A stretch of DNA of 64,000 bases, taken from assembly GCA_038231275.1 (NCBI GenBank), contig JBBRLQ010000023.1:32001-96000 (forward strand). Direction: 5' to 3'. The first letter of the stretch is position 1. Every line of letters starts with the position of its first letter. Made by a program: the position numbers and the translations under genes. The stretch is from Polyangiales bacterium. Its GTDB lineage: Bacteria > Myxococcota_A > Polyangia > Polyangiales > Polyangiaceae. The notes beneath the pieces were generated by a model, which was given only the letters and a program-made list of their open reading frames with translations, was not told the DNA's origin and did not search any database. Positions 7,841-48,209 of the stretch are shown here, in pieces.

Positions 7841-7957
7841 CCCACAAGGATGCGGCCCGCGGAGCGTCTGTGCAACGGCCGGTGGAATGCCCAGTCCGCC
7901 GCGTTCGTCCTCGAAGTAGCTCGCGACGCGCGCGCGGGGTAAAAGGTTCACGAGGAC

Positions 7958-26156: not shown

Positions 26157-26219
26157 CACATTGTGGGTCTACGTAGGCGACAACTTTCCGTCGTCACTGT
26201 CCCCCGAGAGGAACCCGGA

Positions 26220-28103
26220 ATGCTCCGTCACTTCTTCACCTCCGCCGTCGTCGCGCTCGCGCTCCTCCCCGCCGCGGGCGTCTCCGTCGTGGGCTGCTCG
26301 TCCGAGGTCGGTCCGTCCGACGACGGCTCCGATGCGCTCGCCGTCGAGCCGGGACCGAAGGACGTCTCCGGAAGCTCCACCGAGGTGTGGAGCGTCACGC
26401 ACAAGTGGACGGATCGAACGGCCGCCGGCAAGACCTACGAAGAAGACTACGTCGACTGGATCACCAACCTCCGCCGCACCAAGGCGACGCGCTACGGCGA
26501 CACCCTCGAGATCACGACGCCGCCTGGCGCCGCGTACACGCGCACGATGGGCGCGCCGACGCTCGAGTGCGCAGACACGGCGCTCTTCCTCCGCGTCGCA
26601 TACGCGGCGCTCAACCATCTGCCCTTCTACGTGAAGTCGGGCGACGTGTACGGCGGGCACTTTGGCTTCGTCCACAAGGACGGGACGCCGCACTCGGTGG
26701 GTGCAAACTACAAGAACGCGTACAAGGACTACGAGGGCCATTACGCCGACGGGCAGCCCTGGCCGTCGGACGCAACGCTCCGCGCGAAGCACGTCGCCGG
26801 GTACAAGAGCGGCGACGACACGTTCGTCGAGATCACGCCAGGCAACCTCGGCGGCGACGGCGCGTGGTTCGACGAGTTCTTCCTCAACAAGCGCGTCGGC
26901 TGGTTCCTCCTCACGCTCGTCGATCTCTTCGGCAGCACCAACCTCGCACAAGAGGGGAACCTCTTTCACATCAAGCCGGAGGCCACGCGCCCCGGTGACG
27001 CGCTCCTGCATCGCCACGGAAAATACGCGCCGATCGGCCACACGCTGTTCGTCTACCAGGTGCGTCACCCGGCGGCGGATCGCGCGGAGATCGAGGTGGT
27101 CAGCGGCTCGATGCCGGCGCGTCAGGCGTCGTGGGCTCCGCACTACGACTCGCGCAACTACTTCATCTCGGACGAGGGCGGCGGCGACAAGGTCACGACC
27201 GAGTGCCGCTCCGACTACTCGCTCGACTGGAACGATCAGACGCGCTGCACCAAGCAGATCGAAGAGATCCCCAAGCCGGCGAGCGGCGTCTGCAACGCGC
27301 CCTACGAGAAGCACCCGTGGGACGACACCAAGTGCGTGCGCAACGCCGTCGTTCCCGCCGAGCAGACCAATCTCCGCACGCTGGGCGGCGGCATCCGGCG
27401 CTTCCGAACGCCGGTCCTCCAGGGCGGGCACTGGAACAACATCGTCCCGCAGAGCGCGATGAGCGTGTACATCCCCGAGACCGACGCAGAGACGATCGGC
27501 AAGCGCCCGAAGCAGTTCGAGCAGCTCCTCTCTCTCGGGACGCCCGAGCAGCGGAAGGCGGCGGCGATCGCCAACATCGCCAGCGACCGCGACTACATCC
27601 ACACGGCGCCGTCGACGTGCTCGAAGCGCACCGCGCGCGAGGACGCGTTCCAGGAGCTCTATCGCGCCTACTCCGATCTCGGCGAGAACGACCACGCGAA
27701 GATCGACAAGGAGAACCGCAAGCTCGAGGACTACGTCTTCGCCGAGCTCGACTACGACAGCAGCAAGACGTGTTGCTGGAACAGCACGAAGGCCGAGCAC
27801 TTCGACACGATCATGCAGTGGGCGCAGTCGGAGATGACGAAGGCGTCGGCGAATGGCACGTGCATCGCGCCGCCGGTGTTCGAGGCTTCGGGCCCTGGCG
27901 ACGGCTACGAGAAGGTCCGCGCGTACGCGACGTCGAAGAACATGCCGTTCCCGGCGGCGTGGACCGAGGACGAGCCGTGCAAGGCGAAGGCGGTCCAGCA
28001 GGACACGGTCACGCCGCGCGCGAAGGACGCGGATTACTGTGCGACCAACGCGCCGCCGGCCGCGCCGACACCGACGCCTCCCCCTCCTCCCGGGACGCCT
28101 TGA
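26220..28103 (+). CDS. Lipoprotein, putative papain/NlpC-P60-like Cys hydrolase of unknown function
   Basis: Lipobox VVGC; ECADTALFLR..A...LPF, PGDALL and GHT motifs; Cys-rich C-terminal half. Confidence 0.7.
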   Translation: MLRHFFTSAVVALALLPAAGVSVVGCSSEVGPSDDGSDALAVEPGPKDVSGSSTEVWSVTHKWTDRTAAGKTYEEDYVDWITNLRRTKATRYGDTLEITTPPGAAYTRTMGAPTLECADTALFLRVAYAALNHLPFYVKSGDVYGGHFGFVHKDGTPHSVGANYKNAYKDYEGHYADGQPWPSDATLRAKHVAGYKSGDDTFVEITPGNLGGDGAWFDEFFLNKRVGWFLLTLVDLFGSTNLAQEGNLFHIKPEATRPGDALLHRHGKYAPIGHTLFVYQVRHPAADRAEIEVVSGSMPARQASWAPHYDSRNYFISDEGGGDKVTTECRSDYSLDWNDQTRCTKQIEEIPKPASGVCNAPYEKHPWDDTKCVRNAVVPAEQTNLRTLGGGIRRFRTPVLQGGHWNNIVPQSAMSVYIPETDAETIGKRPKQFEQLLSLGTPEQRKAAAIANIASDRDYIHTAPSTCSKRTAREDAFQELYRAYSDLGENDHAKIDKENRKLEDYVFAELDYDSSKTCCWNSTKAEHFDTIMQWAQSEMTKASANGTCIAPPVFEASGPGDGYEKVRAYATSKNMPFPAAWTEDEPCKAKAVQQDTVTPRAKDADYCATNAPPAAPTPTPPPPPGTP

Positions 28104-28127: not shown

Positions 28128-29246
28128 ATGACGCGCACGACGGCCTCAGGTCACCTCTTCGGGATCGCGGCCGTCTTCGCGGCGTTCGCGTCGTCATGCG
28201 CGAGCAACGCGCCGCGGGCGGACACCGTCTCCGGCGTCGACGCGGGTGGCGGCGTCGATGGAGAGGTGCTTCCGCCCCCCGACGCGACAGTCGGGCTCGA
28301 CGCTTCCGTCGATGCGGCGGACGCGTCGCCGATCGCGGACGGCGGCGGAGGGTGTGGCACGTTCGCAGGGACCGACGCCGGGGCCGACGCCGCCGCGCCG
28401 CCGATTCTGCACACAGTCGTTCCGCAGACGACCGATCCCGCGATCACCGCGACGTGGAACGCGCCGCACTACGCGTACGTCGATCCCCACGCGCCCCTGC
28501 GCTGCAAGCTCGTGCTCTTTCTCGTCGGCCTGGGCGGCAAGCCGGGCGACGCGCAGACGTACATGACGCACGCAGCACGCCAGGGGTTCCACGTGCTCGG
28601 CCTCACCTACGCGAACACCATCTCGCCGGCGCCCACGTGCCAGAACGATCCCGATGTCGACTGCCACTTGAAGCTCCGTCAAGAGGAGCTCGACGGCACC
28701 GATCAGAGCCCGCTCCTCGTGGTATCGCGCGCCGATTCGATCGAGAACCGCATCGTGAAAGCGCTCGCGTACCTCGACGCGACGTACCCCGTCGAAGGGT
28801 GGTCTGCGTATTCGGACACCTCGACGGCGCCGCGCTGGGGGTCGATCGTCGTGACGGGACACTCGCACGGCTCGAGCACCGCCGGCGTCATCGGGAAGCT
28901 GCGCAAGGTCGCGCGCGTCGTCATGCTCGCGGGCCCCTATGACTTTCGCTCGCCTACTGCAGGCGCCACGACGGGGACACCGGCATCGTGGCTCGCGAAG
29001 CCGTCGCTTACGAGCCCGTCGGATTTCTATGCCTTCGTCCATCTGGCCGACACACAGTCGCCGCAGGACGCGACGAACTGGGACGCCGCTGGCCTTCCCG
29101 TCGTCGGCACGCGCGTGAGCGTCGACGGCGCGGCGGCCCCCTACGGCGGCTCGCACCAGCTCACGACGAACATCGCGGGCGGTGGTCACGGCAGCGTCGT
29201 GTCGAACGCGGCGTATGGTTCGGTCTGGGACTACTTGCTCGAGTAG
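28128..29246 (+). CDS. Alpha/beta-hydrolase lipoprotein
   Basis: GHSHG nucleophile elbow, FLVGLGG, H..D and C-terminal GHGS; lipobox FASSC. Confidence 0.8.
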   Translation: MTRTTASGHLFGIAAVFAAFASSCASNAPRADTVSGVDAGGGVDGEVLPPPDATVGLDASVDAADASPIADGGGGCGTFAGTDAGADAAAPPILHTVVPQTTDPAITATWNAPHYAYVDPHAPLRCKLVLFLVGLGGKPGDAQTYMTHAARQGFHVLGLTYANTISPAPTCQNDPDVDCHLKLRQEELDGTDQSPLLVVSRADSIENRIVKALAYLDATYPVEGWSAYSDTSTAPRWGSIVVTGHSHGSSTAGVIGKLRKVARVVMLAGPYDFRSPTAGATTGTPASWLAKPSLTSPSDFYAFVHLADTQSPQDATNWDAAGLPVVGTRVSVDGAAAPYGGSHQLTTNIAGGGHGSVVSNAAYGSVWDYLLE

Positions 29247-33384: not shown

Positions 33385-33552
33385 CTACTTCGCGTCGGCC
33401 TTCTTCGCGTCGGCGGCCTTCGCGTCGTACCCCTCGGGGTGGACCGCGAACTTCGGCGTGCCGAGGCGGCGGAGCGTGCGCTTGTTGCGCTTCCCGGCGG
33501 TGGAGGCCTTGCGCTTGCGGATGCGGTCGAACTGCTGCGTCGACGAAACCAT
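33385..33552 (-). CDS. 55-aa Lys/Arg-rich protein (not in the ORF track)
   Basis: MVSSTQQFDRIRKRKASTAGKRNKRTLRRLGTPKFAVHPEGYDAKAADAKKADAK-TAG; GAGG Shine-Dalgarno; almost all third codon positions are G/C. Confidence 0.8.
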   Translation of the reverse strand: MVSSTQQFDRIRKRKASTAGKRNKRTLRRLGTPKFAVHPEGYDAKAADAKKADAK

Positions 33553-33611
33553 TGGAAACCTCTGAGCTTTTTGCGTATCGGGCGGGACGCCCAGGAGGAC
33601 GCGGGACGCGC

Positions 33612-33640
33612 AAGATGGCCGGACAGGGGCCGCCTGTCAA
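33612..33640 (-). promoter_or_regulatory. Sigma70-type promoter TTGACA-N17-CATCTT
   Basis: Perfect -35, 17-nt spacer, followed by a GC-rich discriminator (GCGCGTCC); points into the 55-aa gene. Confidence 0.7.
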
Positions 33641-33695
33641 GGGCAGGCGTCAAGTGCTGGCAAATCGCCCGAGTGCGATTAGGCTGCGCGCGCCG

Positions 33696-34358
33696 ATGAG
33701 CACCGTCGTCTCCGCCATGCCCGCGCGCCCGAAGCCGAAGCTCCGAGGCGTCTCTCATCAGATCGCCTGCTTCGTCGCCATCGCGGCGACGCTGCTCCTC
33801 GTTCGCAGCGCGGGCAGCCCGCGCGCCGCCGCCGCCGCCGCGATCTACGGCGCCTCGCTCTCGACGCTCCTCGGCATCAGCGCCCTCTACCACCGCAAAC
33901 ACTGGGCGCCGGCGCCGCGCATGATCATGCGACGCGTCGATCACTCGGCCATCTTCCTCTTGATCGCCGGCACCTACACGCCCGCCTTCTGGTTGCTCGA
34001 TCCGATCCCCGGCCACCGGCCGCTCTGGATCGTGTGGATCGGCGCCGCGCTCGGCATCGGCAAATCGATGTTGTGGCCGAAGGCACCGAAGGCGGTCACC
34101 GCCGCGCTCTACGTGATTCTGGGGTGGGTCGTCGTCGGCGACGTCGTTCGGCTCGAGAGCGTGATGGGCGCGCCCGCGGTGTGGCTGCTCGTCATCGGCG
34201 GCGTCGTCTATTCGCTCGGCGCGCTCGTGTACGCGCGCCGAAAGCCGGATCCGATGCCCCTGGTCTTCGGGTACCACGAGATCTTCCACGCGCTGGTCCT
34301 GGTCGCCAGCGCGGTCCACTTCGCCCACGTGGTGCTCGTGCTCGGCGTCGCGCGTTAG
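33696..34358 (+). CDS. Hemolysin III / PAQR family membrane protein
   Basis: KPKLRGVSH, SALYH, DHSAIFLLIAGTYTP and GYHEIFH motifs. Confidence 0.93.
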   Translation: MSTVVSAMPARPKPKLRGVSHQIACFVAIAATLLLVRSAGSPRAAAAAAIYGASLSTLLGISALYHRKHWAPAPRMIMRRVDHSAIFLLIAGTYTPAFWLLDPIPGHRPLWIVWIGAALGIGKSMLWPKAPKAVTAALYVILGWVVVGDVVRLESVMGAPAVWLLVIGGVVYSLGALVYARRKPDPMPLVFGYHEIFHALVLVASAVHFAHVVLVLGVAR

Positions 34359-34371
34359 ACGCTCCGTCTCT

Positions 34372-37326
34372 TCAGTTCACCGGCGCCGCGTTGTCCGGTG
34401 GCGCCGTGCTCGTCGCCGCGCCGGGGCTCGGGTTGACGGCGGCGCCTCCGAGATCGAAGAGCGGGAACTCGCGCGACTTGAACGCGAAGATCGGGATCTT
34501 GGTGTGGAAGCCCTTCCAGTGGAACAGCTCCACCTCGAAGAGCTTGATGCCGAGGAACTTGGCGTACGCGTCCATGTGACCGTCGAGCGTGCCGAGCGTG
34601 AGATCGAGCCCCGCGTCGAAGACGATCGAGACGACGGCGTCCTTCGACGACTTGAGCCGCGCGCCGCCGTGCACGGGGAGACCGATGTCGAGGAGCACGA
34701 GGTCCACGTCGACGCCGACGCCCGCGATGCCGGCGATACTGCAATCGGCGCCGACGACGAGATCGAGGTGCGCGTCGGGCTTCACGATGCCGTCGATGTT
34801 GAAGATCTCGTCCTTCTTGCAGGTCCCTTTGTCGGGCCCGCCGGCCTGCACGATGATGTCGGCGCCGTAGCCCCACGCGATGCCGATGGTGAAGGTCAAC
34901 GTGACCCAGGTGATTTGCACGGGGATGACGGCGATCGTCTCCTCGCTGCCGCCCAAGTTGCCGGGGATGATGTAGTTGCCGGCCTGGTTGATCTTGAACT
35001 CGGTATTGTCGGGGATCTTGTAGAACTCGTAGAGCCCCTCGAGGAACTCGCCGTGGCCGTAGACCTTCACCTTGTCGGTCTGTTGCTGCTGCGCGTCGTC
35101 GTTGAGATCGATGCCAAAATCGGCGGCGACGATGTGGAACGGCGGCAAGCCGAACGCGTACGCGAACGCCTCGATCGACGCATGCGTGCGACCGCCCATG
35201 CGGCACGGCACGCTCGGATACTTCGGATCGTTGTCGGGGAAGCGCGCGAAGATTTTTGCCTCCCAGCCAAGGTCGTACGCGTAGCCGACGCCGAACGACT
35301 TGCTGCCCCATGTCTCGTTGTTGCGCTTGTCCTGGCCGAAGTTGTCGGTCTGTTTGATGGGCAGGCCCTCGAGGTCCTTGCCGCGCTTCACCTCGGCGGC
35401 AACGATGACGGACTTGGTCATGACCGGCGTGCGCGCGGGGATGCGCCCGGCGAAGAGCGTCGTGCGCCAGGTGCGGCACTCGGCGTACGCGCGCTCCTTG
35501 GCGGCCATGTTGTAGCCGACCGTGTTGTTCACCCAGCGCTTCACGAACATGTTCGGCGACCAGTCGCACGCGTAGTTCGCGGTGTCGAAGCAGGTCGGTC
35601 CGCGATTGGCAGCGGTCTTCTTCCCCCACTCGTCGAGGAGGACGTTGACGGTCTCGCACGCCGCGAGCTCGCCGACGAAGGCCTCGGGCGCTGCGGGAGT
35701 GGAGGCGGCCCACACGGTCTTCGGCGTGCTCTTGCGGTTCGACGCGCGCGGCGCGCAGAGGAGACGAGGGTACGGCACGGACGTGTCGATCTTGGGCGGG
35801 TGGACGCGCCAGTTGATGTCGAGGTACGCGAGCTGTCCGTTGTCGACGCTGGGCGACTGCGGCTGTTGGAGGCGTGTGCCGCTTCGCACGACGATGTTGC
35901 CGCCGGCGGTGGTGGGAGGTGGGCCGGCCTTGCCGCTCATCGCGTTCAGCTTCGGCGGCGCGGCGGCGCCCGCTTGGAGCAGCGGCGAGCCGAGCGTGAC
36001 GGCGCCGCGGTTCGCGAGGCCGGGGAAGGCGAGGCCGCCGCCGATGTTGGCGCCGGCCTTCAGCGCATCGAGCATGCCGGCGTGCGCGTTGACGAACGAG
36101 AGCATGTCCGTCGCGTTGGTCCGGTCGACGTTGCCGAACGTCGCGCGTGAGGCGAACGGATCGCCGTCGGACATCTGCGCCTGCCCGGGGAAGACGCGGC
36201 CGACGGCGCTGGGGATCCCGGTGCAGTCCTGGGGGTTCAGGTGCGCGACGCATTTGGCGACGTCGTAGAAGTGATCCATCGCGGCGAGCATCGCGTCGTT
36301 GCGCCGCTTGTACTCGTCGAACTCGCCGGGCGTGATCGCCGCGGTGCGCGTGTTGAGGACCTCGTGGAAGTCCCACTCGTCGGCGAAGCCCTGCGCCTTG
36401 GGGCCGATGCCGTTGCCCTTGCCGCCTTGCCCGATGTCGTAGGTCGAGAGCTCGTCACGGATCGCCTTGTAGAGCGCCTGCACGCTCGCCTGCTTCGCCG
36501 GATCGGACGCGAAAGCCGTGACGATCGACGCCGTGAGGAACGCGCCAGTGCCCGCGTAGAACGCGTTTTTCGGCATTCTTCCGGTGAAATCGAGACGACC
36601 GTCGTAGTCGGGGATGAACTCCTTGAAGGCCGGCAGGAGCGGGTTCTGGAGCGCGCGGCGCGCGATGCCGGGCGAGGCGGGCAAGAGGCTCACGTTGACC
36701 TCGCAGCGCGCGTCCCCTTTGCAGCCGTAGATCGCGTCGAGCCACCGCTCGTCGTCGTGGAACCCCTTGTAGACGTAGTCCTCGCACGACGCGACGTCGT
36801 CGCCGCCGGCCGCGTGAGGGCGCTGGTAGGTCGCGAGCAGGCCGCCCGGCGTCCACGCGAGCGCGTCGGTCTTCGCCTTCATCTCTTGCGCGGCCCAGCG
36901 GTTCTGGGTGTTGGGGCGCGGCGCGAGGCGAGGCCGCCGCTTCATCTTCGCGTTCCAGCTCTTGGGCTGACGGTAGGGGTCCTGGGTATAGGGCACCGGC
37001 AGGATGCCGTAGCTCTCGTGACGATTCGAGTCGGCGAAGCCCGGCTCTTTGGGCGTTCCGTAGATCTTGTTTGGCGTCGGCGGTTTTCCCCCGACCCGCG
37101 GGCGCTGCTCCTCGAGCGCGAGGCGCTTGTTCATCGTGTCGCACGTGCCGCGGTTGGCGACGCAGAGCGCGTGGTAGTCGGGGTTGCCGCAGTCCGACGC
37201 GCTCGGAGGCACGTTGCACGGCGAGATCGGCGGGGGATCGCCGGGCGCCGCTGCGCTGTCCACGCCATAAAGCGACGCGCCGAGCGCGATACCGGCCATC
37301 CACGCGATCGTCTTCGTCTTGGTCAT
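34372..37326 (-). CDS. Large secreted protein (984 aa), Cys-containing N-terminus and amphipathic beta-strand-rich C-terminus
   Basis: Sec-type signal peptide, strong GC3 bias, C-terminal ~300 aa of alternating hydrophobic/Gly strands; ATGA overlap with the upstream gene. Confidence 0.85.
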   Translation of the reverse strand: MTKTKTIAWMAGIALGASLYGVDSAAAPGDPPPISPCNVPPSASDCGNPDYHALCVANRGTCDTMNKRLALEEQRPRVGGKPPTPNKIYGTPKEPGFADSNRHESYGILPVPYTQDPYRQPKSWNAKMKRRPRLAPRPNTQNRWAAQEMKAKTDALAWTPGGLLATYQRPHAAGGDDVASCEDYVYKGFHDDERWLDAIYGCKGDARCEVNVSLLPASPGIARRALQNPLLPAFKEFIPDYDGRLDFTGRMPKNAFYAGTGAFLTASIVTAFASDPAKQASVQALYKAIRDELSTYDIGQGGKGNGIGPKAQGFADEWDFHEVLNTRTAAITPGEFDEYKRRNDAMLAAMDHFYDVAKCVAHLNPQDCTGIPSAVGRVFPGQAQMSDGDPFASRATFGNVDRTNATDMLSFVNAHAGMLDALKAGANIGGGLAFPGLANRGAVTLGSPLLQAGAAAPPKLNAMSGKAGPPPTTAGGNIVVRSGTRLQQPQSPSVDNGQLAYLDINWRVHPPKIDTSVPYPRLLCAPRASNRKSTPKTVWAASTPAAPEAFVGELAACETVNVLLDEWGKKTAANRGPTCFDTANYACDWSPNMFVKRWVNNTVGYNMAAKERAYAECRTWRTTLFAGRIPARTPVMTKSVIVAAEVKRGKDLEGLPIKQTDNFGQDKRNNETWGSKSFGVGYAYDLGWEAKIFARFPDNDPKYPSVPCRMGGRTHASIEAFAYAFGLPPFHIVAADFGIDLNDDAQQQQTDKVKVYGHGEFLEGLYEFYKIPDNTEFKINQAGNYIIPGNLGGSEETIAVIPVQITWVTLTFTIGIAWGYGADIIVQAGGPDKGTCKKDEIFNIDGIVKPDAHLDLVVGADCSIAGIAGVGVDVDLVLLDIGLPVHGGARLKSSKDAVVSIVFDAGLDLTLGTLDGHMDAYAKFLGIKLFEVELFHWKGFHTKIPIFAFKSREFPLFDLGGAAVNPSPGAATSTAPPDNAAPVN

Positions 37327-39239
37327 CGGGTCTCCTGGGACACTGCGAGCGCCGGTATCGGATGGTCGTTTTCGAGCTCTCGCTCTTGCGCGAGGAGCCC
37401 CTCGATCTCGTCGTGGAGGTCGCTGTTCGCCGGCGTGCGCGCCAGGATGGCGACGAGGATGGGGTGCGCCTCGTCCTCGGGGTTCGACGCGGCGGTGCCG
37501 AGCAGCGACACGATCGCGCCGTCCGCGGCGTGCGGCGTCTTGTCGAACGCGACGAGCTCGCGAAGGCGCGCCCAGTCGTCACCGGACAGGCTCTGCATCC
37601 GGAGCGCGCGGATCGCGGTGACTGCGACGCTGACCATGCGATCTTGCGCCAGCTCGAAGAGCGTCGTGCGCGTCACGTCGCTGTCGATGTTGCGCAGGCT
37701 GAACGCGACCTGATCGCGCACGTGCGCGCCGGTGCTGCGGGCGTAGGGCGCCATCACCGCGTCGTCCCCCACGAACGCGCCGTTTCCAAGCCCTTTCAAG
37801 AGGGCGATCTGGTCGTCCTCGTCCGTCGCTGCCGCGAGATCGGCGAGCAGCGTCGCGTGGATGTCGTCGCCGAGCCCGTCGCCGACCGCGTGGAGCTTTC
37901 GCGCCAGCGCGCCGAGCGGGACCGCCGACGCGCGCGCGCGCTCGACGTTTTTTTGCGCCTTGGCCTCGTCATAGACATCTCGCACGACCGCGGCCGTTGC
38001 GCGCGCCGGCTTCCTCACGAGCATGAAGCGCTGCACGAAATGCCCGAACGCCTCCGTGTCGGCGCGCGCCTCGCTCGAGCCAATGAGCGTTGCCATCGCC
38101 TCCTGTGCCGTCGCGTCGCCGGTCGCGCTGAGCAGATCCATCACGAGCGTGCGCGACGCGTTCGAGCGGGTCGATTGGAAGAGCGCGACCAGCGCGCGCG
38201 TCGACTCGGGGTGAAGTCGACCGTACGCCGACGCGCGGACGATGAAGCCGCGCTTCAGATCGGGGCTGCGGGCGTAGTCGAGGACGGTGGCCTGGATCGA
38301 CGCGGTCGTCGTGTCGGCGACGAGGCTCTCGTCCCTCTTCTGCTCGTCGATCGCGAGCGGAGCGGCGGTGGCGGTGAAGCGCGCGGCGTCGCTCGGACGC
38401 GCGTCGTTCGGCGTGATCGCGCGTCGCGTCAGCTCGAGCTCCGAAGACGAGCGATAGGGGAGGTCACCCGTGTCGATCGTCACCTGCTCGGTGTCGCGCA
38501 TCGAGACGAGCACGCCCGCCGTGTCCAGCACGATCGTCGCGCCGCCGCCGACGTGTTGCGGCGCGTCGTCCAGCTCACCCGGCGCGGCAGGCACCGCGGT
38601 CACGTGGGTGTAGGCAACGCGCTCGCGAAGGAGCGTGCGCGCGTCGTCGCTCCGGTAGCGCACCTTGCACGTCCCGGTCGGCGTCGTCTCTTCGGCTTCC
38701 CAGGTCGTCACCGCACCGTCGGGGGGGAGGCTGACGCGGACCGCCTGCACGACGCGCTCGAGCAGCTGCCGAACGCGAGGCGGCGTCGTCGGATCGAACG
38801 CGACGCTCACGATTCGCCCTCGCTCGTCCATGCGAACGAGCGCTGCCTGGCCTACGATCGCGCTCTTCTCGGCGGGCGCCGTCGCGTCGTCGAACATCGG
38901 CTTGCCCTGCATGCGCACGTCGTACGTCCGGATCTCGGGCATGGAGACGACGAGTTCGGACACGCCGTCACGCGCGCCGATCGCGCGGACGAGGAGCGTC
39001 GCCTCGAGCCGCACGTCGACGTCCATCGGATGCGGAGCGCCGGGCAAGTGGACCAGCGACGCGCCCGACCAGGTGAGATCGTAGACGTGGTCGCTGCCGG
39101 CGCTCCACCGCTGGGCCCGCGTCGTGGCGCGCTCGTTCGCGTGCGCCGCGGGCCCCATCGCGCGCCTCGCGGTGGCGTACATGCACACCGCCGCTGCGCC
39201 CATCAATGCGGTGAGGATCACCGCGTGCGTCCTCTTCAT
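37323..39239 (-). CDS. Vitellogenin_N / large lipid transfer (LLT)-like protein with HEAT-like helical domain
   Basis: W..G..HVY, GRIVSVAF...P....LL..V, EETTPTGTCKVRY, DLLSATGDATAQ, LGALARK, LLKGLGNG and VRDQVAFSLR follow the motif order of LLT domains. Confidence 0.7.
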   Translation of the reverse strand: MKRTHAVILTALMGAAAVCMYATARRAMGPAAHANERATTRAQRWSAGSDHVYDLTWSGASLVHLPGAPHPMDVDVRLEATLLVRAIGARDGVSELVVSMPEIRTYDVRMQGKPMFDDATAPAEKSAIVGQAALVRMDERGRIVSVAFDPTTPPRVRQLLERVVQAVRVSLPPDGAVTTWEAEETTPTGTCKVRYRSDDARTLLRERVAYTHVTAVPAAPGELDDAPQHVGGGATIVLDTAGVLVSMRDTEQVTIDTGDLPYRSSSELELTRRAITPNDARPSDAARFTATAAPLAIDEQKRDESLVADTTTASIQATVLDYARSPDLKRGFIVRASAYGRLHPESTRALVALFQSTRSNASRTLVMDLLSATGDATAQEAMATLIGSSEARADTEAFGHFVQRFMLVRKPARATAAVVRDVYDEAKAQKNVERARASAVPLGALARKLHAVGDGLGDDIHATLLADLAAATDEDDQIALLKGLGNGAFVGDDAVMAPYARSTGAHVRDQVAFSLRNIDSDVTRTTLFELAQDRMVSVAVTAIRALRMQSLSGDDWARLRELVAFDKTPHAADGAIVSLLGTAASNPEDEAHPILVAILARTPANSDLHDEIEGLLAQERELENDHPIPALAVSQETR

Positions 39240-39360
39240 GCGTTCGTCTCCCAGCGATCCATCAGAGGCGCGAAGGGCGATTGCCGCAAGGATTCCGTCG
39301 CTTACACGGTCGCGTAAACACCGAGGGCGAGCGATCGCGGCGAGCGGTACGATCGGAAGG

Positions 39361-40236
39361 ATGCGCGCGCCGCCCGCCCATGGGATTCTCGTCGCGATCG
39401 CGGCGATGATGGCGGCGTCGTGCGACGGATCGCGCGCCTCGACGTCGGCCCCGGCGGACTCGGGGACGTGCGCCGCCGTCGCGGACGCGTCGGACCTCGC
39501 GTGCGTGCTCCACGTCGACGGTCGCGTCATCGATCTCGCCGGCTCGCCTGTGCGGCGGCCCGTCGTGTCCATGTGCTCGCGCGAGTGCTACGGCGCCGCA
39601 GGGGCCGACGACGGGACCTTCTCGATCCCTATAGGCGCGCTGCTTCGCGCTAGCGATTATGCGCTCCACGTCAGCGGCCGCCCCGACTTCGCCGACGTGT
39701 ACTCGAAGGTGCCGCCGGCCGACAAAGGAGCGATCGCGCTCGGAGCGGCGATCATTCTGCCCGCGCTTCCATCGACCGGGCCAGCGCTTCCGGACGCCGC
39801 GGCGACGGCCACGACGATCGTGAGCGGCGATCTCACGCTCGACGTGCCCGCAGGTGCCACCTTCCAACTCGACGTCGGCGACGTCGCGCTCGGCGACCGC
39901 GGTCGCCAGCTCCGTGTCGCGCGCGTACCGCTGGACGCCACCCCGGAGTTCGCGCGCGCGCTCACCGGCGTCGTGGGCCTCTACGCGCTCGCGCCTCCGG
40001 GCGCCGCGTCGTCTCTTCCGCTCGCCGTGCACCTGCCGAACGCGGCTTCGCTTCCGCCGTCGAGCGCGGTCGATCTCTTCGTGCTCGACGACGACTACCG
40101 CCCGATGCCGCCCACCGCGGGCACTGCGCGCCTCGCGGCGAAGGCGCACGTCTCGGCAGATGGCCGTACCATCGACACCGACGTCGGTGCGGGCATCGCG
40201 AACCTCACTTGGCTGGTCGTGCGTCGATCTCCGTGA
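39361..40236 (+). CDS. Lipoprotein with transthyretin/carboxypeptidase-regulatory-like beta domain
   Basis: Lipobox MAASC; VDGRVIDLAGSPV...C...C.....DDGTFSI pattern. Confidence 0.7.
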   Translation: MRAPPAHGILVAIAAMMAASCDGSRASTSAPADSGTCAAVADASDLACVLHVDGRVIDLAGSPVRRPVVSMCSRECYGAAGADDGTFSIPIGALLRASDYALHVSGRPDFADVYSKVPPADKGAIALGAAIILPALPSTGPALPDAAATATTIVSGDLTLDVPAGATFQLDVGDVALGDRGRQLRVARVPLDATPEFARALTGVVGLYALAPPGAASSLPLAVHLPNAASLPPSSAVDLFVLDDDYRPMPPTAGTARLAAKAHVSADGRTIDTDVGAGIANLTWLVVRRSP

Positions 40237-40704: not shown

Positions 40705-42189
40705 TTAGTTTGCGGGGCGGACGGTAACGTTCGCGGAGTAGGTCGGCATCGCGAAGGCAGGGACCTTCGCCTTGCCGAGCGCCGCCTTGATGCAACCCTC
40801 GGCCGGCTTGCCTGCGGCGTTGCCGGTGACGATCACGCTCTGCACGCTGCCGTTCGATCCGAACGTCACCGCGGCGCGTGAGACGGGCTCGTCCTGCTTG
40901 AGGCACGCACGCGCCGCGGGGAGGGCCGCGCCGATCGCGCCGGTGACCGCGCCCTGCGAGGGCTTCTGCGGGACGCTGCCCGCGGCGATCGCCGGATCGG
41001 TCGCCGCGGGAGCCGCGGGCGTCGTGTCCTGAGACGCCGGCGTGGGCGCCGGGGTCACGGCGGCCGACTGCTTGATCGCGTCGGCGAGCGCACCGGTCGG
41101 TCCGGGCGCGGGCGGAAGATCCTTCGCGACGAGCTTCGGATCGATTTTGTCGGTCTTGTCCGTCGGGTCGGCCTTCGCGACGCGTGCGCCGCCGGCCTTC
41201 TTGGGCGCCGCGTTCGGGGCCGTCGCCACCTTGCCGCCACCGCCGACGGCACCCTTGGTCGGATCGTCGGTCTTGCTCGTGTCGTCCGCCGGCGTCGCCG
41301 TCGCGAGCGCGACCGGAGCTGCGGCCGGAGCGGTCGTCGCCAAAGGAGCAGCCTCGGCGTTCGGATCGGCCGGCGCCGGGACGATCATCGCCACCGCCTG
41401 CGCCGCCCTCTTCGCCTGCTGCGCCTTCACGACGAAGAACGCGCCCGCCGCCATCGCGGCGATCGCCGCCACGCCGCCGATCAGGAGGAGCCCGCTGCTC
41501 TTCTTCTTATCGTTCTTGTCACCCTTCGCGACCTTGCCGGAGACCGGCTGACCCGAGAGCACCGCGGAGGCGACCGCGCTCGAGATGGCCGGCGCGCTCA
41601 TCGGCGCTTGCGAATTGCGCAGCGAGCTCGGCGGCTGGCTGTTGCGGTCTTCCTCGTCGAACAGCGGCTGCGACGCGAGCGGCGTGCTCTGCGCGCGGCT
41701 CGAAGCCATCGGGTCGGACGCGGCGGCAGCCTTCAAATCGACGACGCCCGAGTCGCTCGCGTGCGCTTCTGCGGCGCGGAGGATACCGCTGGGCGGCGAG
41801 CTGACCGGTTGGGAGCGAACCGAGGGCGGCGGCGGCGTGTTCGCCATCCGGGCCAGATCCTGAAAGCTCCGCCTCTCGCGCGTCGACGTCGTCGTGCTGC
41901 TTGCCATCTTTCCCTCCAGGGACTGCCCGACAGAGGCGCTTCGGCTCGAAGGAGCCACGCCTACCCCAGTTGAAGCGGCCGTCTTATGACCTTCTTCGGG
42001 CGTCGATGGAAGAGGTGGATCCAAGAAATTTTCAGTGCCGATGTGTGCTTTTGTCGGTGAGTTCGCGACCTTGGCGTCCACCTCGCTGGCGCGCGCCTCC
42101 CAATCTTCCGCAGAAATCGCGGGCTCCGGCCACTCGCCGAGGGTCTTGAGCAGCGCGCGATCGCTCGCGTCTTTCCGCGTCTCACTCAC
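40705..42189 (-). CDS. Single-pass membrane protein, probable anti-sigma factor with TonB-C/AgmX-like C-terminal domain
   Basis: Directly follows the ECF sigma; one TM, Pro/Ala linker, C-terminal ARAC...VTFGSNGSVQSV...AEGCI......VPAF. Confidence 0.65.
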   Translation of the reverse strand: MSETRKDASDRALLKTLGEWPEPAISAEDWEARASEVDAKVANSPTKAHIGTENFLDPPLPSTPEEGHKTAASTGVGVAPSSRSASVGQSLEGKMASSTTTSTRERRSFQDLARMANTPPPPSVRSQPVSSPPSGILRAAEAHASDSGVVDLKAAAASDPMASSRAQSTPLASQPLFDEEDRNSQPPSSLRNSQAPMSAPAISSAVASAVLSGQPVSGKVAKGDKNDKKKSSGLLLIGGVAAIAAMAAGAFFVVKAQQAKRAAQAVAMIVPAPADPNAEAAPLATTAPAAAPVALATATPADDTSKTDDPTKGAVGGGGKVATAPNAAPKKAGGARVAKADPTDKTDKIDPKLVAKDLPPAPGPTGALADAIKQSAAVTPAPTPASQDTTPAAPAATDPAIAAGSVPQKPSQGAVTGAIGAALPAARACLKQDEPVSRAAVTFGSNGSVQSVIVTGNAAGKPAEGCIKAALGKAKVPAFAMPTYSANVTVRPAN

Positions 42190-42190
42190 G

Positions 42191-42784
42191 TCACAAACTC
42201 CCTTCTTCCAAGTCGAAACCCCGTTCGGACAGAAACTCCCTCAGTTTGCGCCGCGCCTCGTGCACGCGCCACGCGATCGTCCCCTCCGGTGCGCCGAGGA
42301 TTTGCGCCGCGTCCTCGTGCGAGCGGCCGTCGATGCAGACCAAAATGAGGGTCGTCCGCAGCGTCTCGCTCAGCTTGTCGATCCCCTCGCAAAGGGTGAA
42401 GTAGAGCTCTTTGCGCGACGCTTGACCTCGCGGATCGCTCGAGGGGCCGCTACCCTTCTCGCTGAGGAGCGCGTCGAGGCGGGGATCGTCGGAGTCCGCG
42501 CCCGTCCGAGCGGTCTTGCGCGCGCGGATCGTGTTGAGCGAGAGGTTCACCGTGATCCGGTAAAACCAGGTGTAGGGCTCGCTCCTGCCGTCGAAGCGGG
42601 CGAGCGCCTGGTAGGCGCGGATGAACGTCTCTTGCGTGACGTCCTCGGCCTCCGCCCGATCGCGCAACATGTGCACCGCGAGGCGATGAATGCGCGGCTG
42701 ATGGCGTCGAACCAGCTGGCCAAAGGCCAGGTTGTCTCCGCTCTTGGCGCGATCGACCAGATCGCGATCGGTCAGCTTTGCCAT
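42191..42784 (-). CDS. ECF RNA polymerase sigma factor
   Basis: AFGQLVRRHQ, AEDVTQETFIRAY, TWFYRI..N and region 4 GTIAWRVHEARRKL; an alternative start at 42847 is possible. Confidence 0.93.
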   Translation of the reverse strand: MAKLTDRDLVDRAKSGDNLAFGQLVRRHQPRIHRLAVHMLRDRAEAEDVTQETFIRAYQALARFDGRSEPYTWFYRITVNLSLNTIRARKTARTGADSDDPRLDALLSEKGSGPSSDPRGQASRKELYFTLCEGIDKLSETLRTTLILVCIDGRSHEDAAQILGAPEGTIAWRVHEARRKLREFLSERGFDLEEGSL

Positions 42785-43149
42785 CGGCCTTCCGGTGGTG
42801 TTCGCGCTTCTACTGGACAGAGCGCCTCCACCTCCACCTTGATGCATCTGCGCCGGGATCGAGACGACCTCGAAGTCAGCGAGGAGCAACTCCGGGCAGG
42901 ACGATAGCGTAAGCACGCCTCTTTTAACAATTAAGCCGGGGGTTACCTTGGATCGCGCGGGCTTCCGGAGGGCGTTTTTCGGATAGGGCAACCCCTCGTA
43001 ATGAATCGTAAACGGTCGCCGATCGCCTGAAAAAGGAGGAAGATGCTGCCGGTGGAGCGCGTTGGCGACGCGTCAATCGTCTCGGGCATCGAAATTTCGC
43101 CCCGGCGCCCTACGACTACGCGCCGACCCGCTTTCTACTGGAGACCCGC

Positions 43150-44499
43150 ATGGCCGATACGTCCGCAGTGACCGAAGAGCTCCGTCGCGCGCTGCAAGCA
43201 GAAGAAGGTGGTCGCCGCTGGGTGCGGCGCGGCATGATCGCGGGCGGCATCGCGCTCGTGATCGGCGCGGGCCTGTTGTGGCGGGCGAAGCACCAACCGC
43301 CGCCGCCGGCGAAGTTCGTGAGCGCGCAGGTCGCCGTGGGGGACATCGCGGAGAAGGTGCAGGCCACCGGCGCCGTGCAGCCGCTCCTGCAAGTCAACGT
43401 CGGCGCGCAGGTCAACGGACGCGTGACGCGCGTTCTCGTCGACTTCAACACGCTCGTTCACAAAGGGGACGTGCTCGCCGAGATCGATCCTTCGATTTAC
43501 GGCACGCAGGTGGCCTCGCAGCAGTCGCAGGTCGCGGCGCAGCGCGCGCAGCTCGAGCAAGCGCGCGCGCAGAGCCAGACCGCGAAGGCGCAGGTCGAGA
43601 CCGCGCGCGCGCAGATGGACACGACGAAGGCGCAGTACGATCGCGTCAAGCGCCTCTTCGAGCAGAACCTCGCCAGCAAGGGGGATCTCGACGCCGCGAA
43701 GGGGGCCTACGACGGCGCGAAGGCGCAACACGACGCCGCGAGCGCCACGTTCGACGCGTCGAGCGCCGCCGTGAACAGCGCGCATGCCAGCATCGGCGCG
43801 CAGCAGGCGCAGCTGAACCAGATGACGACGAACCTCGGCTACACGAAGATCTACGCCCCGGTCGACGGCGTCGTCGTCACGCGCAGCATCGATCCGGGCG
43901 CCACCGTCGTCGCGAGCTTCCAGGCGCCGGTCCTGTTCGTCATCGCGCAGGACTTGAAGAAGATGCGCGTCCTCGCCGACGTCGACGAGGCAGACGTCGG
44001 CAAGCTCAAGGACGGCATGGAGGCCGACGCCGTCGTCGACGCGTTCCCGGGCGAGGCGTTCCACGGCGTCGTCCAGCAAGTCCGCTTCAGCCCCAACAAC
44101 GTGCAGGGCGTCGTCACCTACTCGGCGGTCATCGAGGTGCAGAACCCCGATGAGAAGCTGCGCCCCGGCATGACCGCGACCGTGACCATCAAGACGCGCG
44201 AGGTGAAGGGCGCGCTTCGAATTCCCAACGCGTCGCTTCGCTACAAGCCGAGCCCGCCGCTCGGGCCCGATGGCAAGCCGGTCCTCCAGACCCCCGAGCC
44301 GCCGCTCGCGAAGGGGCAGGGGCGTATCTGGGTCATCACGAGCGAGAAGCCTGGCGAAGAGAAGGACGAGCAGAAGCTCATCGGCGTCGGCATCACCGAC
44401 GGTGTCTTCACCGAGCTCCTCCCGGGCCCGGTGGCCGCGGGCGCGAAGATCGTCACCGACGAGAACGAGACCGACGACAAGAAGAAGAAGGGGAAGTAA
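43150..44499 (+). CDS. MacA-like periplasmic adaptor (membrane fusion protein)
   Basis: ATGAVQP..VNVGAQVNG, IYAPVDGVV, VDEADVG and KLRPGMTA motifs; long coiled coil. Confidence 0.93.
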   Translation: MADTSAVTEELRRALQAEEGGRRWVRRGMIAGGIALVIGAGLLWRAKHQPPPPAKFVSAQVAVGDIAEKVQATGAVQPLLQVNVGAQVNGRVTRVLVDFNTLVHKGDVLAEIDPSIYGTQVASQQSQVAAQRAQLEQARAQSQTAKAQVETARAQMDTTKAQYDRVKRLFEQNLASKGDLDAAKGAYDGAKAQHDAASATFDASSAAVNSAHASIGAQQAQLNQMTTNLGYTKIYAPVDGVVVTRSIDPGATVVASFQAPVLFVIAQDLKKMRVLADVDEADVGKLKDGMEADAVVDAFPGEAFHGVVQQVRFSPNNVQGVVTYSAVIEVQNPDEKLRPGMTATVTIKTREVKGALRIPNASLRYKPSPPLGPDGKPVLQTPEPPLAKGQGRIWVITSEKPGEEKDEQKLIGVGITDGVFTELLPGPVAAGAKIVTDENETDDKKKKGK

Positions 44500-45755
44500 T
44501 GGCCGCCGCGGAGGTCCTCCCGACGGCGCATGGGCGCGGCGATCCCGAGGTCTTGATCGAGATCAAGAGCGTCGCCAAGGACTACGTCTCGGCGGCCGGC
44601 GTCGTGCGCGCGCTGCGCGAGGTCGACATCGAAATCCGGCAGGGCGAGTTCGTGGCCGTCGTCGGCACGAGCGGCAGCGGGAAGTCGACGCTGATGAACA
44701 TCCTCGGCTGCCTCGATCGGCCGACCCACGGCACCTACTCACTCGCCGGCCTCGACGTCGGCGCGCGTACGAACGACGGGCGCGCCATCGTCCGAAATCG
44801 CCTCATTGGCTTCATTTTCCAGGGATTCAACCTGCTCCCGCGCACGACGGCGCTCGAGAACGTCGAGCTGCCGCTCCAGTACCGCGGCGTACCGGCCGCC
44901 GATCGCCGGAAGCGCGCGCTGGCGTCGCTTGCACAAGTCGGTCTCCAAGATCGCGTGCATCATACACCCAACCAACTCTCCGGCGGGCAGCAGCAGCGCG
45001 TGGCCATTGCCCGCGCGCTCGTCACCGATCCGCCGCTGCTCCTCGCCGACGAGCCGACCGGCAACTTGGACACCCGCACCAGCCTCGAGGTCCTCGCGCT
45101 CCTCCAGGAGCTCAATCGCAAGGACCGCATCACGATCGTGCTGGTCACCCACGAGCGCGACATCGCCGCGTGCGCGTCGCGCGTCATCACGTTCCGCGAC
45201 GGCCGCGTGCTCACCGACATCACGCAGGAGAAACCGCTCGACGCCGCGGCCGCGCTCGCCGACCTGCCCACGCCGCAAGATGGCCCCAGTCAAGGCGCCG
45301 AAGACGACGACGAGGACCCCGTGCTTGCCGCCCGGATGCGTCGCGGCGGTCCGGTTCCGTTCGCCGTCTACGGCGCGATGTTGGGCGGCTCCATCCTCGG
45401 CGCCTTGGTCGGGCTCCTCTACAATGCCGTCGTCCTCGAGGCGAAGGTCGCGTGGGTCATCGTCCTCGCGGCGGCGCTCGGCGAGTCGCTGCTGGCGGCG
45501 CGGGTTGGGAGGAGCAAGCTCGGGCGACCGCTGACGGGCGATCAGCGCGCGCGCATGGCGATCGGGTACACGATCGCGACCGCGCTCGTGGTGGCGCCGT
45601 TCCTCCTCTACCGCGTGCCGCTCCCGATCGCGTCGCGCCTCGAGGGCCTGAGTGCCAGCGGCGTCGCTGCGGCGGGCGCCGTGTTCGTGCTCGCCCTCGC
45701 CGCACTCGCGCTCCTGCGTTTCCTCCTCCTGTCGCTCCTCGGGCCGAGGAAGTGA
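44499..45755 (+). CDS. MacB/LolD-type ABC ATPase with extra C-terminal 4-TM extension
   Basis: GTSGSGKSTLMNILGCLD, LSGGQQQRVAIARAL, DEPTGNLD and VTHE; hydrophobic tail of ~130 aa. Confidence 0.9.
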   Translation: MAAAEVLPTAHGRGDPEVLIEIKSVAKDYVSAAGVVRALREVDIEIRQGEFVAVVGTSGSGKSTLMNILGCLDRPTHGTYSLAGLDVGARTNDGRAIVRNRLIGFIFQGFNLLPRTTALENVELPLQYRGVPAADRRKRALASLAQVGLQDRVHHTPNQLSGGQQQRVAIARALVTDPPLLLADEPTGNLDTRTSLEVLALLQELNRKDRITIVLVTHERDIAACASRVITFRDGRVLTDITQEKPLDAAAALADLPTPQDGPSQGAEDDDEDPVLAARMRRGGPVPFAVYGAMLGGSILGALVGLLYNAVVLEAKVAWVIVLAAALGESLLAARVGRSKLGRPLTGDQRARMAIGYTIATALVVAPFLLYRVPLPIASRLEGLSASGVAAAGAVFVLALAALALLRFLLLSLLGPRK

Positions 45756-45756
45756 C

Positions 45757-46980
45757 GTGATCGCGCTCCTCTACACCGCGATCCGGCTCGCCCTCGGCGC
45801 GATCGCGCGCAACAAGACGCGCGCCGCGCTGACCGTCCTCGGGATCTTGATCGGCGTGAGCGCGGTCGTGATGGTGACGGCGCTCGCCGGTGGCGCGTCG
45901 CAGCTCGTGGTCGGACAGATCGACAGCTTCGGCTCGAACATGCTCTTCGTGAACCCGCAGCCGACGCAGACGAGCGGCGCGCGGAGCAAGGCGATCGGCC
46001 GCCTGACCGAGAACGATGGCCGCGCGATCGCGCGCGAGGCGGTCAGCGTGGCGAAGGTTGCCCCGTTCATCGCGTCGTTCGGTCAGGTGGTCTACGCCGA
46101 CCAGAACGTCTCGACGACGCTCATCGGCACCACCATCGACTACTTCGAGATTCGGAAATTCAAGGTCGCGAAGGGCGATCTCTGGAGCGAGTCGGACGAG
46201 CTCATCAAGAGCAAAGTCCTCCTGCTGGGGATGACGGTCGCCGACAAGCTCTTCGGGGCCTCCGATCCGATCGGCAGGACGGTTCGTATCGGTCGCTACC
46301 CCTTCAAAGTGATCGGCGTCCTCGGACCTCGCGGCACGTCGCCGTTCGGAGAAGATCAGGACGATCGCCTCATCATGCCGATCGGCTCGTTTCGCGGGCG
46401 CGTCATGTTCACGGCGCCTGGTCGCGCCGACATGCTGATCGCGAGCTCGACGAGTGACGAGACCACGAACCGGGCGGCCGATCAGATCACGTCGATCCTG
46501 CGCCAGCGTCACCGCATCGCCGCCGATCGCGACTCCGATTTCACGGTGAACTCGCAGGCCGAGTTCCGGAAGACGACCGAAGGGATCACCACGGCGCTCT
46601 CGCTCCTCCTCCTCAGCGTGGCGGCGGTGAGCCTGCTCGTCGGCGGCATCGGCGTCATGAACATCATGCTGGTGTCGGTCGCCGAGCGGACGCGCGAGAT
46701 CGGCATCCGCATGTCGATCGGCGCACGAAGCCGGGACATCCTCACGCAGTTCCTGGTGGAGGCGGTGGTGCTCTCGATGATCGGCGGGATTTTCGGCATG
46801 ATCATCGGCGTCGGTACGGTCCTCGGCATCGGCCGCGCGCTCGATTGGCCGGTGACGCCGACAGGTCCCGCGATCGCCGTCGCGGTGCTCACCAGCGTCG
46901 TCATTGGCATCGTCTTCGGCTTTTTGCCGGCGCGTCGCGCGGCGTCGCTCGATCCCATCGAAGCGTTGAGGGTCGAGTGA
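45757..46980 (+). CDS. MacB/FtsX-type ABC permease 1
   Basis: LTVLGILIGV, GGIGVMNIMLVSV.ERTREIGIR and PARRAASLDPIEALR motifs. Confidence 0.93.
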   Translation: MIALLYTAIRLALGAIARNKTRAALTVLGILIGVSAVVMVTALAGGASQLVVGQIDSFGSNMLFVNPQPTQTSGARSKAIGRLTENDGRAIAREAVSVAKVAPFIASFGQVVYADQNVSTTLIGTTIDYFEIRKFKVAKGDLWSESDELIKSKVLLLGMTVADKLFGASDPIGRTVRIGRYPFKVIGVLGPRGTSPFGEDQDDRLIMPIGSFRGRVMFTAPGRADMLIASSTSDETTNRAADQITSILRQRHRIAADRDSDFTVNSQAEFRKTTEGITTALSLLLLSVAAVSLLVGGIGVMNIMLVSVAERTREIGIRMSIGARSRDILTQFLVEAVVLSMIGGIFGMIIGVGTVLGIGRALDWPVTPTGPAIAVAVLTSVVIGIVFGFLPARRAASLDPIEALRVE

Positions 46981-48194: not shown

Positions 48195-48209
48195 GGTACG
48201 GTTTCGGGC

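Follow-up and report, generated by a model that had tools for sequence, protein, structure and literature searches.

Two adjacent genes on the minus strand of a 64,000-nt stretch of DNA from a Polyangiales bacterium (GenBank assembly GCA_038231275.1, contig JBBRLQ010000023.1, positions 32,001-96,000 of the forward strand; this whole stretch is called the window and its positions are used as coordinates) form a conserved, tightly coupled two-gene unit of Myxococcota. For the product of the first (gene 1, 638 amino acids, aa), a high-confidence model shows the N-terminal beta-barrel and helical domain of the large lipid transfer proteins (LLTPs), an assignment strongly supported by comparison of this model with solved structures. 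The second (gene 2, 984 aa) encodes a Cys-rich protein with a signal-peptide-like N-terminus, which may, as a tentative proposal drawn from a low-confidence model, supply the cavity sheets (A/C-type) in trans. That the pair is a co-translated module forming an MTP-like two-chain lipid carrier of the cell envelope seems to us about evenly poised between right and wrong.

A paper on honey-bee vitellogenin, in the parts that concern them, presents LLTPs (apoB, MTP, vitellogenin and apolipophorin) as lipid carriers of animals and ties their emergence to multicellularity (PMC12214520). A preliminary description of the window, made from the sequence, had read the two genes as a split protein of this type, with gene 1 providing the barrel and helices and gene 2 the cavity sheet in the same order as in the eukaryotic protein. 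The fold of gene 1 and the co-occurrence of the genes were borne out; conservation of the order was not, and the gene 2 sheets remain tentative.

Predicted fold of the gene 1 product

The gene 1 product was modelled with AlphaFold2 using a 129-sequence alignment (mean predicted local distance difference test score, pLDDT, 91.3; predicted TM-score, pTM, 0.78). The model includes a half-barrel wrapped around a helix with a helical domain directly after it, both of which are LLTP features, and the chain ends 13 residues past the last helix. When the model was compared with 350,542 PDB chains using Foldseek, the top 11 matches were all LLTPs: MTP (6i7s_H, 6.7e-17 over 640 columns; 6i7s_G, 1.2e-16; 8eoj_B, 6.0e-11), lipovitellin (1lsh_A, 2.0e-14), apoB100 (9bd1, 7.7e-13; 9e9r and 9ea7, ~1e-11), apoB (9bdt_A, 3.4e-10), honey-bee vitellogenin (9ens_A, 6.5e-11, and 9enr_A, both ~1e-10) and an apoB100 beta-barrel construct (9bd8_A, 7.8e-9). 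The alignments cover the whole protein in 10 of the 11 (609-763 columns) and 387 columns in the barrel construct. The first match outside the LLTPs is an ARM/HEAT design at 2.5e-5, and proteins composed of HEAT or ARM repeats alone reach this value at best and align over at most 430 columns. Since the LLTP alignments are far better and longer than these, most of the Foldseek signal appears to come from the barrel. The preliminary description had itself suggested a Foldseek comparison with lipovitellin and MTP, and the outcome that would have spoken against it, generic HEAT matches and no lipid-transfer barrel, did not occur.

The gene 1 product also carries a hydrophobic N-terminus (residues 6-24), where the Kyte-Doolittle 19-mer mean reaches its maximum of 1.91 at residue 6. 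A segment of this kind is present in 123 of the 129 sequences of the alignment (gene 1 included). Together with the signal-like segment read directly from the gene 2 translation, this agrees with the anchor and signal peptide noted previously.

The gene 1 family

The gene 1 translation contains, in the order in which they had been listed, the motifs RWSAGSDHVY, GRIVSVAFDP, EETTPTGTCKVRY, GVLVSMRDTEQV, SSSELEL, DLLSATGDATAQ, LGALARK, LLKGLGNG and VRDQVAFSLR. Searched alone against Pfam, gene 1 gives only sub-threshold matches (HEAT_2 at E 0.25), and searches of NCBIfam and of PDB sequences gave nothing useful. Its four close homologues (48-55% identity) are more informative. One carries a precomputed PF01347.29 (Vitellogenin_N) label and another, P0006, matches Vitellogenin_N at 25.6 bits (cutoff 24), residues 382-557 aligning with positions 354-539 of the 590-position profile. 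HEAT_2 is found at residues ~464-560 in all five sequences of the alignment of gene 1 with these homologues.

A profile built from these five sequences was compared with 1.84 billion cluster representatives and retrieved 1657 at E<=1e-3, of which 861 reach <=1e-10 and 335 reach <=1e-30; the family thus comprises 1657 clusters at 50% identity. The 150 matches listed span 260-679 aa, most of them falling at 600-650 aa, and align end to end. Pfam analysis of 60 family representatives identified Vitellogenin_N in 28 at E<=1e-3, with 17 of the 60 above the 24-bit cutoff, and HEAT_2 at E<=1e-3 in 59. The Vitellogenin_N matches are colinear with the profile (protein residue ~350 aligns with profile position ~350) and always lie within positions 331-573 of 590, which is its helical half. 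The barrel half was never matched by sequence in gene 1, in the close homologues or in the 60 representatives. With a profile of all 129 sequences, the PDB sequence search recovered the MTP large subunit (E 1.8e-4), profile positions 412-528 aligning with chain residues 388-504. In the protein Atlas, gene 1 scores 0.95-0.98 with bacterial clusters whose members carry HEAT_2 and, in 12-75% of cases, Vitellogenin_N; the commonest phyla of these look-alike clusters are Myxococcota, Planctomycetota and Pseudomonadota.

The gene 2 product

No family could be assigned to gene 2 by Pfam, by NCBIfam, by Pfam analysis of six relatives or by searches of PDB sequences, whether with gene 2 alone or with a profile, and its best score in the Atlas is 0.85, with unnamed clusters only. 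Homologues were found in the protein collection (six, 35-60% identity) and in related loci (three), and a 10-sequence profile search retrieved no further relatives. The protein has 17 Cys, 16 of them invariant or nearly so across the family alignment, which would fit an oxidising, extracytoplasmic location. Strictly conserved blocks lie at residues ~170-400 (CEDYVYKGF…ERWLDAIYGCKGDxRCE, and DEWDFH with invariant D316, E317, W318 and H321); from their conservation they look like a functional site.

As had been noted from the translation, the C-terminal ~300 residues are predicted to form Gly-rich beta strands: the model places strands at 659-958, and residues 651-960 contain 11.9% Gly. Gly, Asp, Ile, Leu and Phe abound in this region, where the most hydrophobic stretches of the protein (798-816 and 854-885) are also found, and several of the model strands are 22-27 residues long. 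In a Foldseek search with the low-confidence AlphaFold2 model of gene 2, the only matches at E<=1e-3 were the MTP chains 6i7s_G and 6i7s_H (6.9e-5 and 1.0e-4, 297-306 columns). These were followed by the lipid-binding protein P47 (6e-3), porins (~1e-2), lipovitellin (1.7e-2, rank 5) and MTP 8eoj_B (2.1e-2). The idea that gene 2 forms the cavity sheet gains tentative support because the partner of an MTP-like protein independently picks MTP from ~350,000 chains; the low confidence of the model and the lack of any family assignment by sequence leave this part of the earlier description only tentatively upheld.

Conservation and organization of the gene pair

One genome per species was scanned with an eight-sequence gene 1 alignment, and gene 2 relatives were identified by tblastn. 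Eight loci with a gene 1 relative were obtained (L001-L008), all from Myxococcota, and a gene 2 relative adjoins it in six, besides the window, as the proposal of co-occurrence had anticipated. Gene 2 is located downstream of gene 1 in L001-L003, which are Polyangiales-type metagenome-assembled genomes (MAGs), and upstream in L004 (Vitiosangium sp. GDMCC 1.1324), L005 and L006; the eukaryotic-like order is thus not a conserved feature, being reversed in three of the six. The junctions are short: a 4-nt ATGA overlap in the window, 31 nt in L001, a 1-nt gap in L002 and L003, 16 nt in L004, ~50 nt in L005 and, in the reversed order, a GTGA overlap in L006. The two genes have diverged in parallel, with gene 1/gene 2 identities of 55/57, 49/59, 49/60, 32/31, 33/29 and 28/24-26% in the six loci. 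Two further pairs of homologues in the protein collection may also be neighbours, the contigs of the members of each pair having the same length (26727 and 19633). A gene 2 relative is missing from two of the eight loci, one of which, L008, is a 2.3-kb contig that breaks off within the gene 1 relative and is thus uninformative.

The other, L007, from a Labilithrix MAG, includes a 468-aa relative (7482-8888, plus strand) that keeps the helical domain (Vitellogenin_N, 30.7 bits) and has no full barrel. It may be a natural truncation, or an assembly or frameshift artefact. Its downstream ORF (open reading frame; 374 aa) was considered as a short gene 2 analogue and its upstream ORF as a detached barrel; both were rejected (hhalign probabilities 0.3 and 0.1, respectively).

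A third conserved gene was sought among the neighbours. None of the eight window neighbours recurs beside the pair, with the exception of one weak HlyD match in L002, and Pfam analysis of 47 neighbour ORFs from L001-L007 revealed no common partner. Since no other neighbour is conserved and the pair is flanked by a convergent and a divergent gene, the unit consists of gene 1 and gene 2 only. Fused forms, which had been proposed as a check, are absent from the 150 gene 1 family matches listed (longest 679 aa). Because the order varies and no long forms occur among these matches, recent fission of a fused gene is disfavoured.

Within the window, both genes had been correctly delimited, including their lengths and the ATGA overlap (Table 1), which probably provides translational coupling. 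The longest form of the ORF holding gene 1 extends to 39572 (37323..39572, minus strand, 749 aa). We accepted the 638-aa start because its ATG (at 39239) is preceded by GGGAG, because the alignments of all four close homologues begin there, and because the longer form overlaps a divergent plus-strand ORF; the 749-aa form, whose extension the homologues lack since they begin at the internal Met, was rejected. The G+C content of the window is ~66-75%; at third codon positions (GC3) it reaches 0.92 in gene 2 and 0.88 in the longest ORF containing gene 1. From these GC3 values and from the full-length homologues of both proteins (24-60% identity), the genes are not a chance ORF pair. No promoter-like sites were detected in a scan of 34200-39700, and the terminator-like sites in it were no more frequent than expected by chance and fell on the wrong strand. 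Scans of the window for tRNAs and Rfam families found nothing, no paralogues of the pair occur within the window, and tblastn of a plasmid collection with gene 1 gave no match.

Table 1. Coordinates of the gene pair, its predicted domains and neighbouring features (window positions).
Feature	Position	Strand	Size	Remarks
Gene 1	37323..39239	-	638 aa	predicted membrane-anchored or exported protein with predicted LLTP-like N-terminal module (beta-barrel and alpha-solenoid)
N-terminal hydrophobic helix, gene 1 residues 5-26	39162..39227	-		putative signal anchor or signal peptide; model pLDDT only 52-58
Beta-rich domain, gene 1 residues 49-277	38409..39095	-		modelled LLTP 'N-sheet' half-barrel, internal helix 154-166; pLDDT mostly >90
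Alpha-solenoid, gene 1 residues 299-625	37365..38345	-		~20 helices; equivalent of LLTP helical domain in the model
Gene 1 stop/gene 2 start overlap (ATGA)	37323..37326	-	4 nt	sequence read ...cccgATGAcc..., GGAGA just upstream
Gene 2	34372..37326	-	984 aa	ATG start; predicted secreted, Cys-rich protein; no known family
Signal-peptide-like N-terminus, gene 2 residues 1-27	37246..37326	-		ends ...SAAA; read from translation; conserved in family alignment
Cys-rich region, gene 2 residues 28-650	35377..37245	-		mostly helical or unmodelled; blocks CEDYVYKGF...ERWLDAIYGCKGD and DEWDFH; pLDDT mostly <50
Strictly conserved blocks, gene 2 residues ~170-400	~36127-36816	-		putative functional site
Hydrophobic beta strands, gene 2 residues 659-958	34453..35352	-		~17 long strands (DSSP, pLDDT 50-77); candidate lipid-binding sheets
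ORF without Pfam family at E<=1e-6	6554-8374	-	606 aa	long, high GC3
ORF without Pfam family at E<=1e-6	10737-13136	-	799 aa	long, high GC3
ORF without Pfam family at E<=1e-6	26163-28103	+	646 aa	long, high GC3
ORF without Pfam family at E<=1e-6	28128-29246	+	372 aa	long, high GC3
HlyIII gene	33552-34358	+		Haemolysin-III/PAQR-family membrane protein
Divergent ORF	39361-40236	+		lipoprotein-like N-terminus from internal Met (…AAMMAASC); no Pfam family
494-aa protein	40705-42189	-	494 aa	GTG start; Pro/Ala/Ser-rich, central hydrophobic segment
ECF sigma factor	42191-42991	-		
HlyD-family adaptor	43150-44499	+		MacAB-type efflux operon
ABC ATPase	44499-45755	+		MacAB-type efflux operon
MacB_PCD/FtsX permease	45652-46980	+		MacAB-type efflux operon
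MacB_PCD/FtsX permease	46845-48194	+		MacAB-type efflux operon
Cytochrome P450	48210-49694	+		follows the efflux operon

A putative two-chain lipid carrier and its alternatives

In the lipid-carrier model, gene 1 would use its N-terminal hydrophobic helix to stay attached to the inner membrane or to pass across it, and would present a half-beta-barrel and a double-layer helical solenoid corresponding to the N-terminal two thirds of animal LLTPs. Gene 2 would be a Sec-exported, disulfide-rich protein whose last ~300 residues form long hydrophobic beta strands. By analogy with MTP, in which sheets A and C are clamped by the helical domain, the gene 1 solenoid may clamp the gene 2 beta domain, and the resulting two-subunit hydrophobic pocket would bind or shuttle lipid in the envelope, an MTP-like action from two chains. 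Both proteins are probably exported or anchored outside the cytoplasm, to judge from the N-terminal hydrophobic segments, the signal-like N-terminus of gene 2 and its conserved Cys. A heterodimer, a shared cavity and a lipid cargo would be expected from the comparison with MTP.

A number of observations weigh against such a carrier. The Foldseek TM-scores of gene 1 are low (0.27-0.37, query-normalised; root-mean-square deviation 12-24 Å), and therefore its domain arrangement differs from that of LLTPs or is uncertain. The window's own gene 1 has no match to Pfam PF01347 (Vitellogenin_N) even at E<=10, the sequence matches of its relatives are confined to the helical half, which also resembles ordinary HEAT repeats, and many designed HEAT-repeat (alphaRep) proteins outrank MTP in the 129-sequence profile search. 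The gene 2 model, built from seven sequences, has a mean pLDDT of only 41; low-confidence models can give meaningless matches, the output leaves the aligned MTP region unreported, and porins and TULIP-type proteins follow MTP among the matches (6e-3 to 1e-1). For about 620 of the gene 2 residues, LLTPs offer no equivalent. At the level of the genes, the order is not fixed, fused forms were not found among the matches listed, and L007 has a 468-aa gene 1 relative with no gene 2 nearby. Finally, the gene 1 family (1657 clusters) looks far larger than that of gene 2 (6 + 3 homologues), so that most gene 1 members may work without such a partner.

It is possible, if somewhat unlikely, that gene 1 is instead an LLTP-fold scaffold, chaperone or receptor for gene 2, that gene 2 acts as an adhesin, toxin or pore-former secreted by the cell, and that the two share no lipid cavity. 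Myxobacteria are predators, and gene 2 is large, Cys-rich, apparently secreted and of no known family; its hydrophobic beta hairpins would also suit membrane insertion, and its weak Foldseek matches include membrane attack complex chains (0.036-0.08). The barrel and helices of MTP are themselves reported to bind another protein, apoB, in the parts of the MTP paper that treat these domains (PMC6717300). The best and only significant structural matches of gene 2 are nevertheless to MTP and not to pore formers, while the tight conservation of the two genes is compatible with this reading and with the lipid carrier alike. Rather more improbable is that gene 2 forms a beta-barrel in the outer membrane through its C-terminal region and that anchored gene 1 spans the periplasm, in a trans-envelope complex for transport or signalling. 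The ~17 predicted strands, the N-terminal anchor on gene 1 and matches to porins (chitoporin, OmpU, OmpT, OmpF and OccK, E 9e-3 to 1e-1) would all be consistent with this. The porin matches are, however, at least 100-fold weaker than those to MTP, with probabilities of 0.04-0.08, and several strands, at 22-27 residues, exceed the typical membrane-spanning length. Outer-membrane barrels typically end in a conserved aromatic terminal strand, but the gene 2 family has none, the tails after ...DLG being variable and rich in Pro and Cys.

Most improbable by far, and already disfavoured, is that gene 1 resembles LLTPs only artefactually, as a HEAT-repeat protein whose beta domain is unrelated to theirs and whose motifs match by chance. 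It is in keeping with this that gene 1 gives just a sub-threshold HEAT_2 match in Pfam, that designed HEAT repeats dominate the sequence-profile search, and that the Cys of the 'G.C...Y' motif is not conserved, being missing in two of the four close homologues. Against it stand the Foldseek values for LLTPs (1e-17 to 1e-9, compared with 2.5e-5 at best for HEAT/ARM-only proteins) and the colinearity of the Vitellogenin_N matches in relatives.

Comparison with known systems

MTP alpha (6I7S, 8EOJ) is the best structural match of gene 1 and also of the low-confidence gene 2 model. In the lipid-carrier model the pair would act as MTP does, which shuttles lipid in a small cavity. In the passages of PMC6717300 that define its domains, the barrel comprises residues 21-297 and the helical domain 298-603, and residues 604-884 form sheets A and C and contain the lipid site; the helical domain is said to clamp these sheets, and MTP to work only as a heterodimer. 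These limits are nearly colinear with those of gene 1 (21-297/298-603 against 49-277/299-625), and a requirement for a second protein is likewise proposed for the pair. The differences are as clear. MTP has its A and C sheets on the same chain, whereas gene 1 stops where the sheets would begin; the partner of MTP is PDI, while that of gene 1 is a 984-aa protein of unassigned family with ~620 extra residues. Sequence identity between MTP and gene 1 is 11-12%. MTP resides in the lumen of the animal endoplasmic reticulum, in contrast to a bacterial module with an N-terminal hydrophobic anchor or signal and a presumed envelope location.

Lipovitellin, vitellogenin and apoB-100 (1LSH, 9ENR/9ENS, 9BD1, 9E9R, 9BD8) share the N-sheet barrel and helical subdomain with the gene 1 model (2e-14 to 8e-9), and Pfam Vitellogenin_N is detectable in gene 1 relatives. 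They are single chains of 1000-4500 aa or cleavage products of one precursor, unlike the bacterial equivalent, which is separately encoded and covers the first ~600 residues only. They also possess funnel- or belt-like lipid sheets, vWD and other domains, and are known from animals, as far as the relevant parts of PMC12214520 describe them. The pair is therefore not a regular member of the LLTPs: gene 1 fails the Pfam cutoff, has no sheets on its own chain and is 11-13% identical to the LLTPs of solved structure.

Bacterial HEAT-repeat proteins (PBS-lyase HEAT-like, HEAT_2) resemble the gene 1 family in that HEAT_2 is found in it and alphaRep designs top its profile search, but they lack the N-terminal barrel and fall behind LLTPs in Foldseek by 12 orders of magnitude. 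The Lol, Lpt, Mla/MCE and AsmA/TamB-like systems are bacterial envelope lipid carriers and would be functional analogues of the proposed pair, since they move hydrophobic cargo across or within the periplasm. Their folds are unrelated, and none of them is among the listed fold-search matches of either protein.

Some bacterial members are already tagged Vitellogenin_N in public domain annotation. New here are the confirmation at the level of the predicted fold, the conservation of a partner gene and an architecture that is split. A full-text literature search returned papers on animal LLTPs or unrelated subjects, none of which concerns bacterial members by title or abstract. With a predicted LLTP-like fold in a bacterial family of 1657 clusters, the question of where the superfamily originated becomes open to testing. 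The module might be an old bacterial invention, a widespread exported barrel-and-solenoid protein which in myxobacteria would act with a separate beta-sheet subunit as a two-chain lipid-transfer machine of the envelope, and from which animal MTP, apoB and vitellogenin would descend, by fusion of the sheet domain or by acquisition of a fused form; we consider this unlikely, and, if it were true, the LLTP module would not have arisen with animal multicellularity. As a small two-chain version of the fold that lends itself to genetics, the pair could also serve for asking how helical clamp and lipid sheets cooperate; the record of L004, which bears no MAG label, has a title that suggests a culture-collection strain. 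Such bacteria make outer-membrane vesicles and unusual lipids, and the lipid-carrier model, if true, would extend the lipid handlers of the bacterial envelope by a new kind.

Neighbouring genes

The window also includes four long ORFs with high GC3 and no Pfam family at E<=1e-6, all of them distant from the pair (Table 1). Immediately beside it, the HlyIII gene is convergent with gene 2, their stops being 14 nt apart, and no terminator-like site was found in this interval. On the other side, the start of the divergent lipoprotein-like ORF lies 121 nt from that of gene 1, and the two may share a regulatory region. This ORF is convergent in turn with a gene pair (40705-42991) in which an extracytoplasmic function (ECF) sigma factor is followed one base later by the 494-aa protein; from their sequences these look like a sigma/anti-sigma pair, and they lie outside the gene 1/gene 2 transcript.

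Efflux components are encoded a few kb from the gene pair in L002 (HlyD, ABC), L003 (AcrB) and L005 (MacB permease), and MacB-type and HlyD proteins are not conserved partners. Efflux genes are probably abundant in such genomes, and their proximity could be due to chance. In the window itself they form a MacAB-type operon which, with the cytochrome P450 gene that follows it, occupies 43150-49694 on the plus strand.

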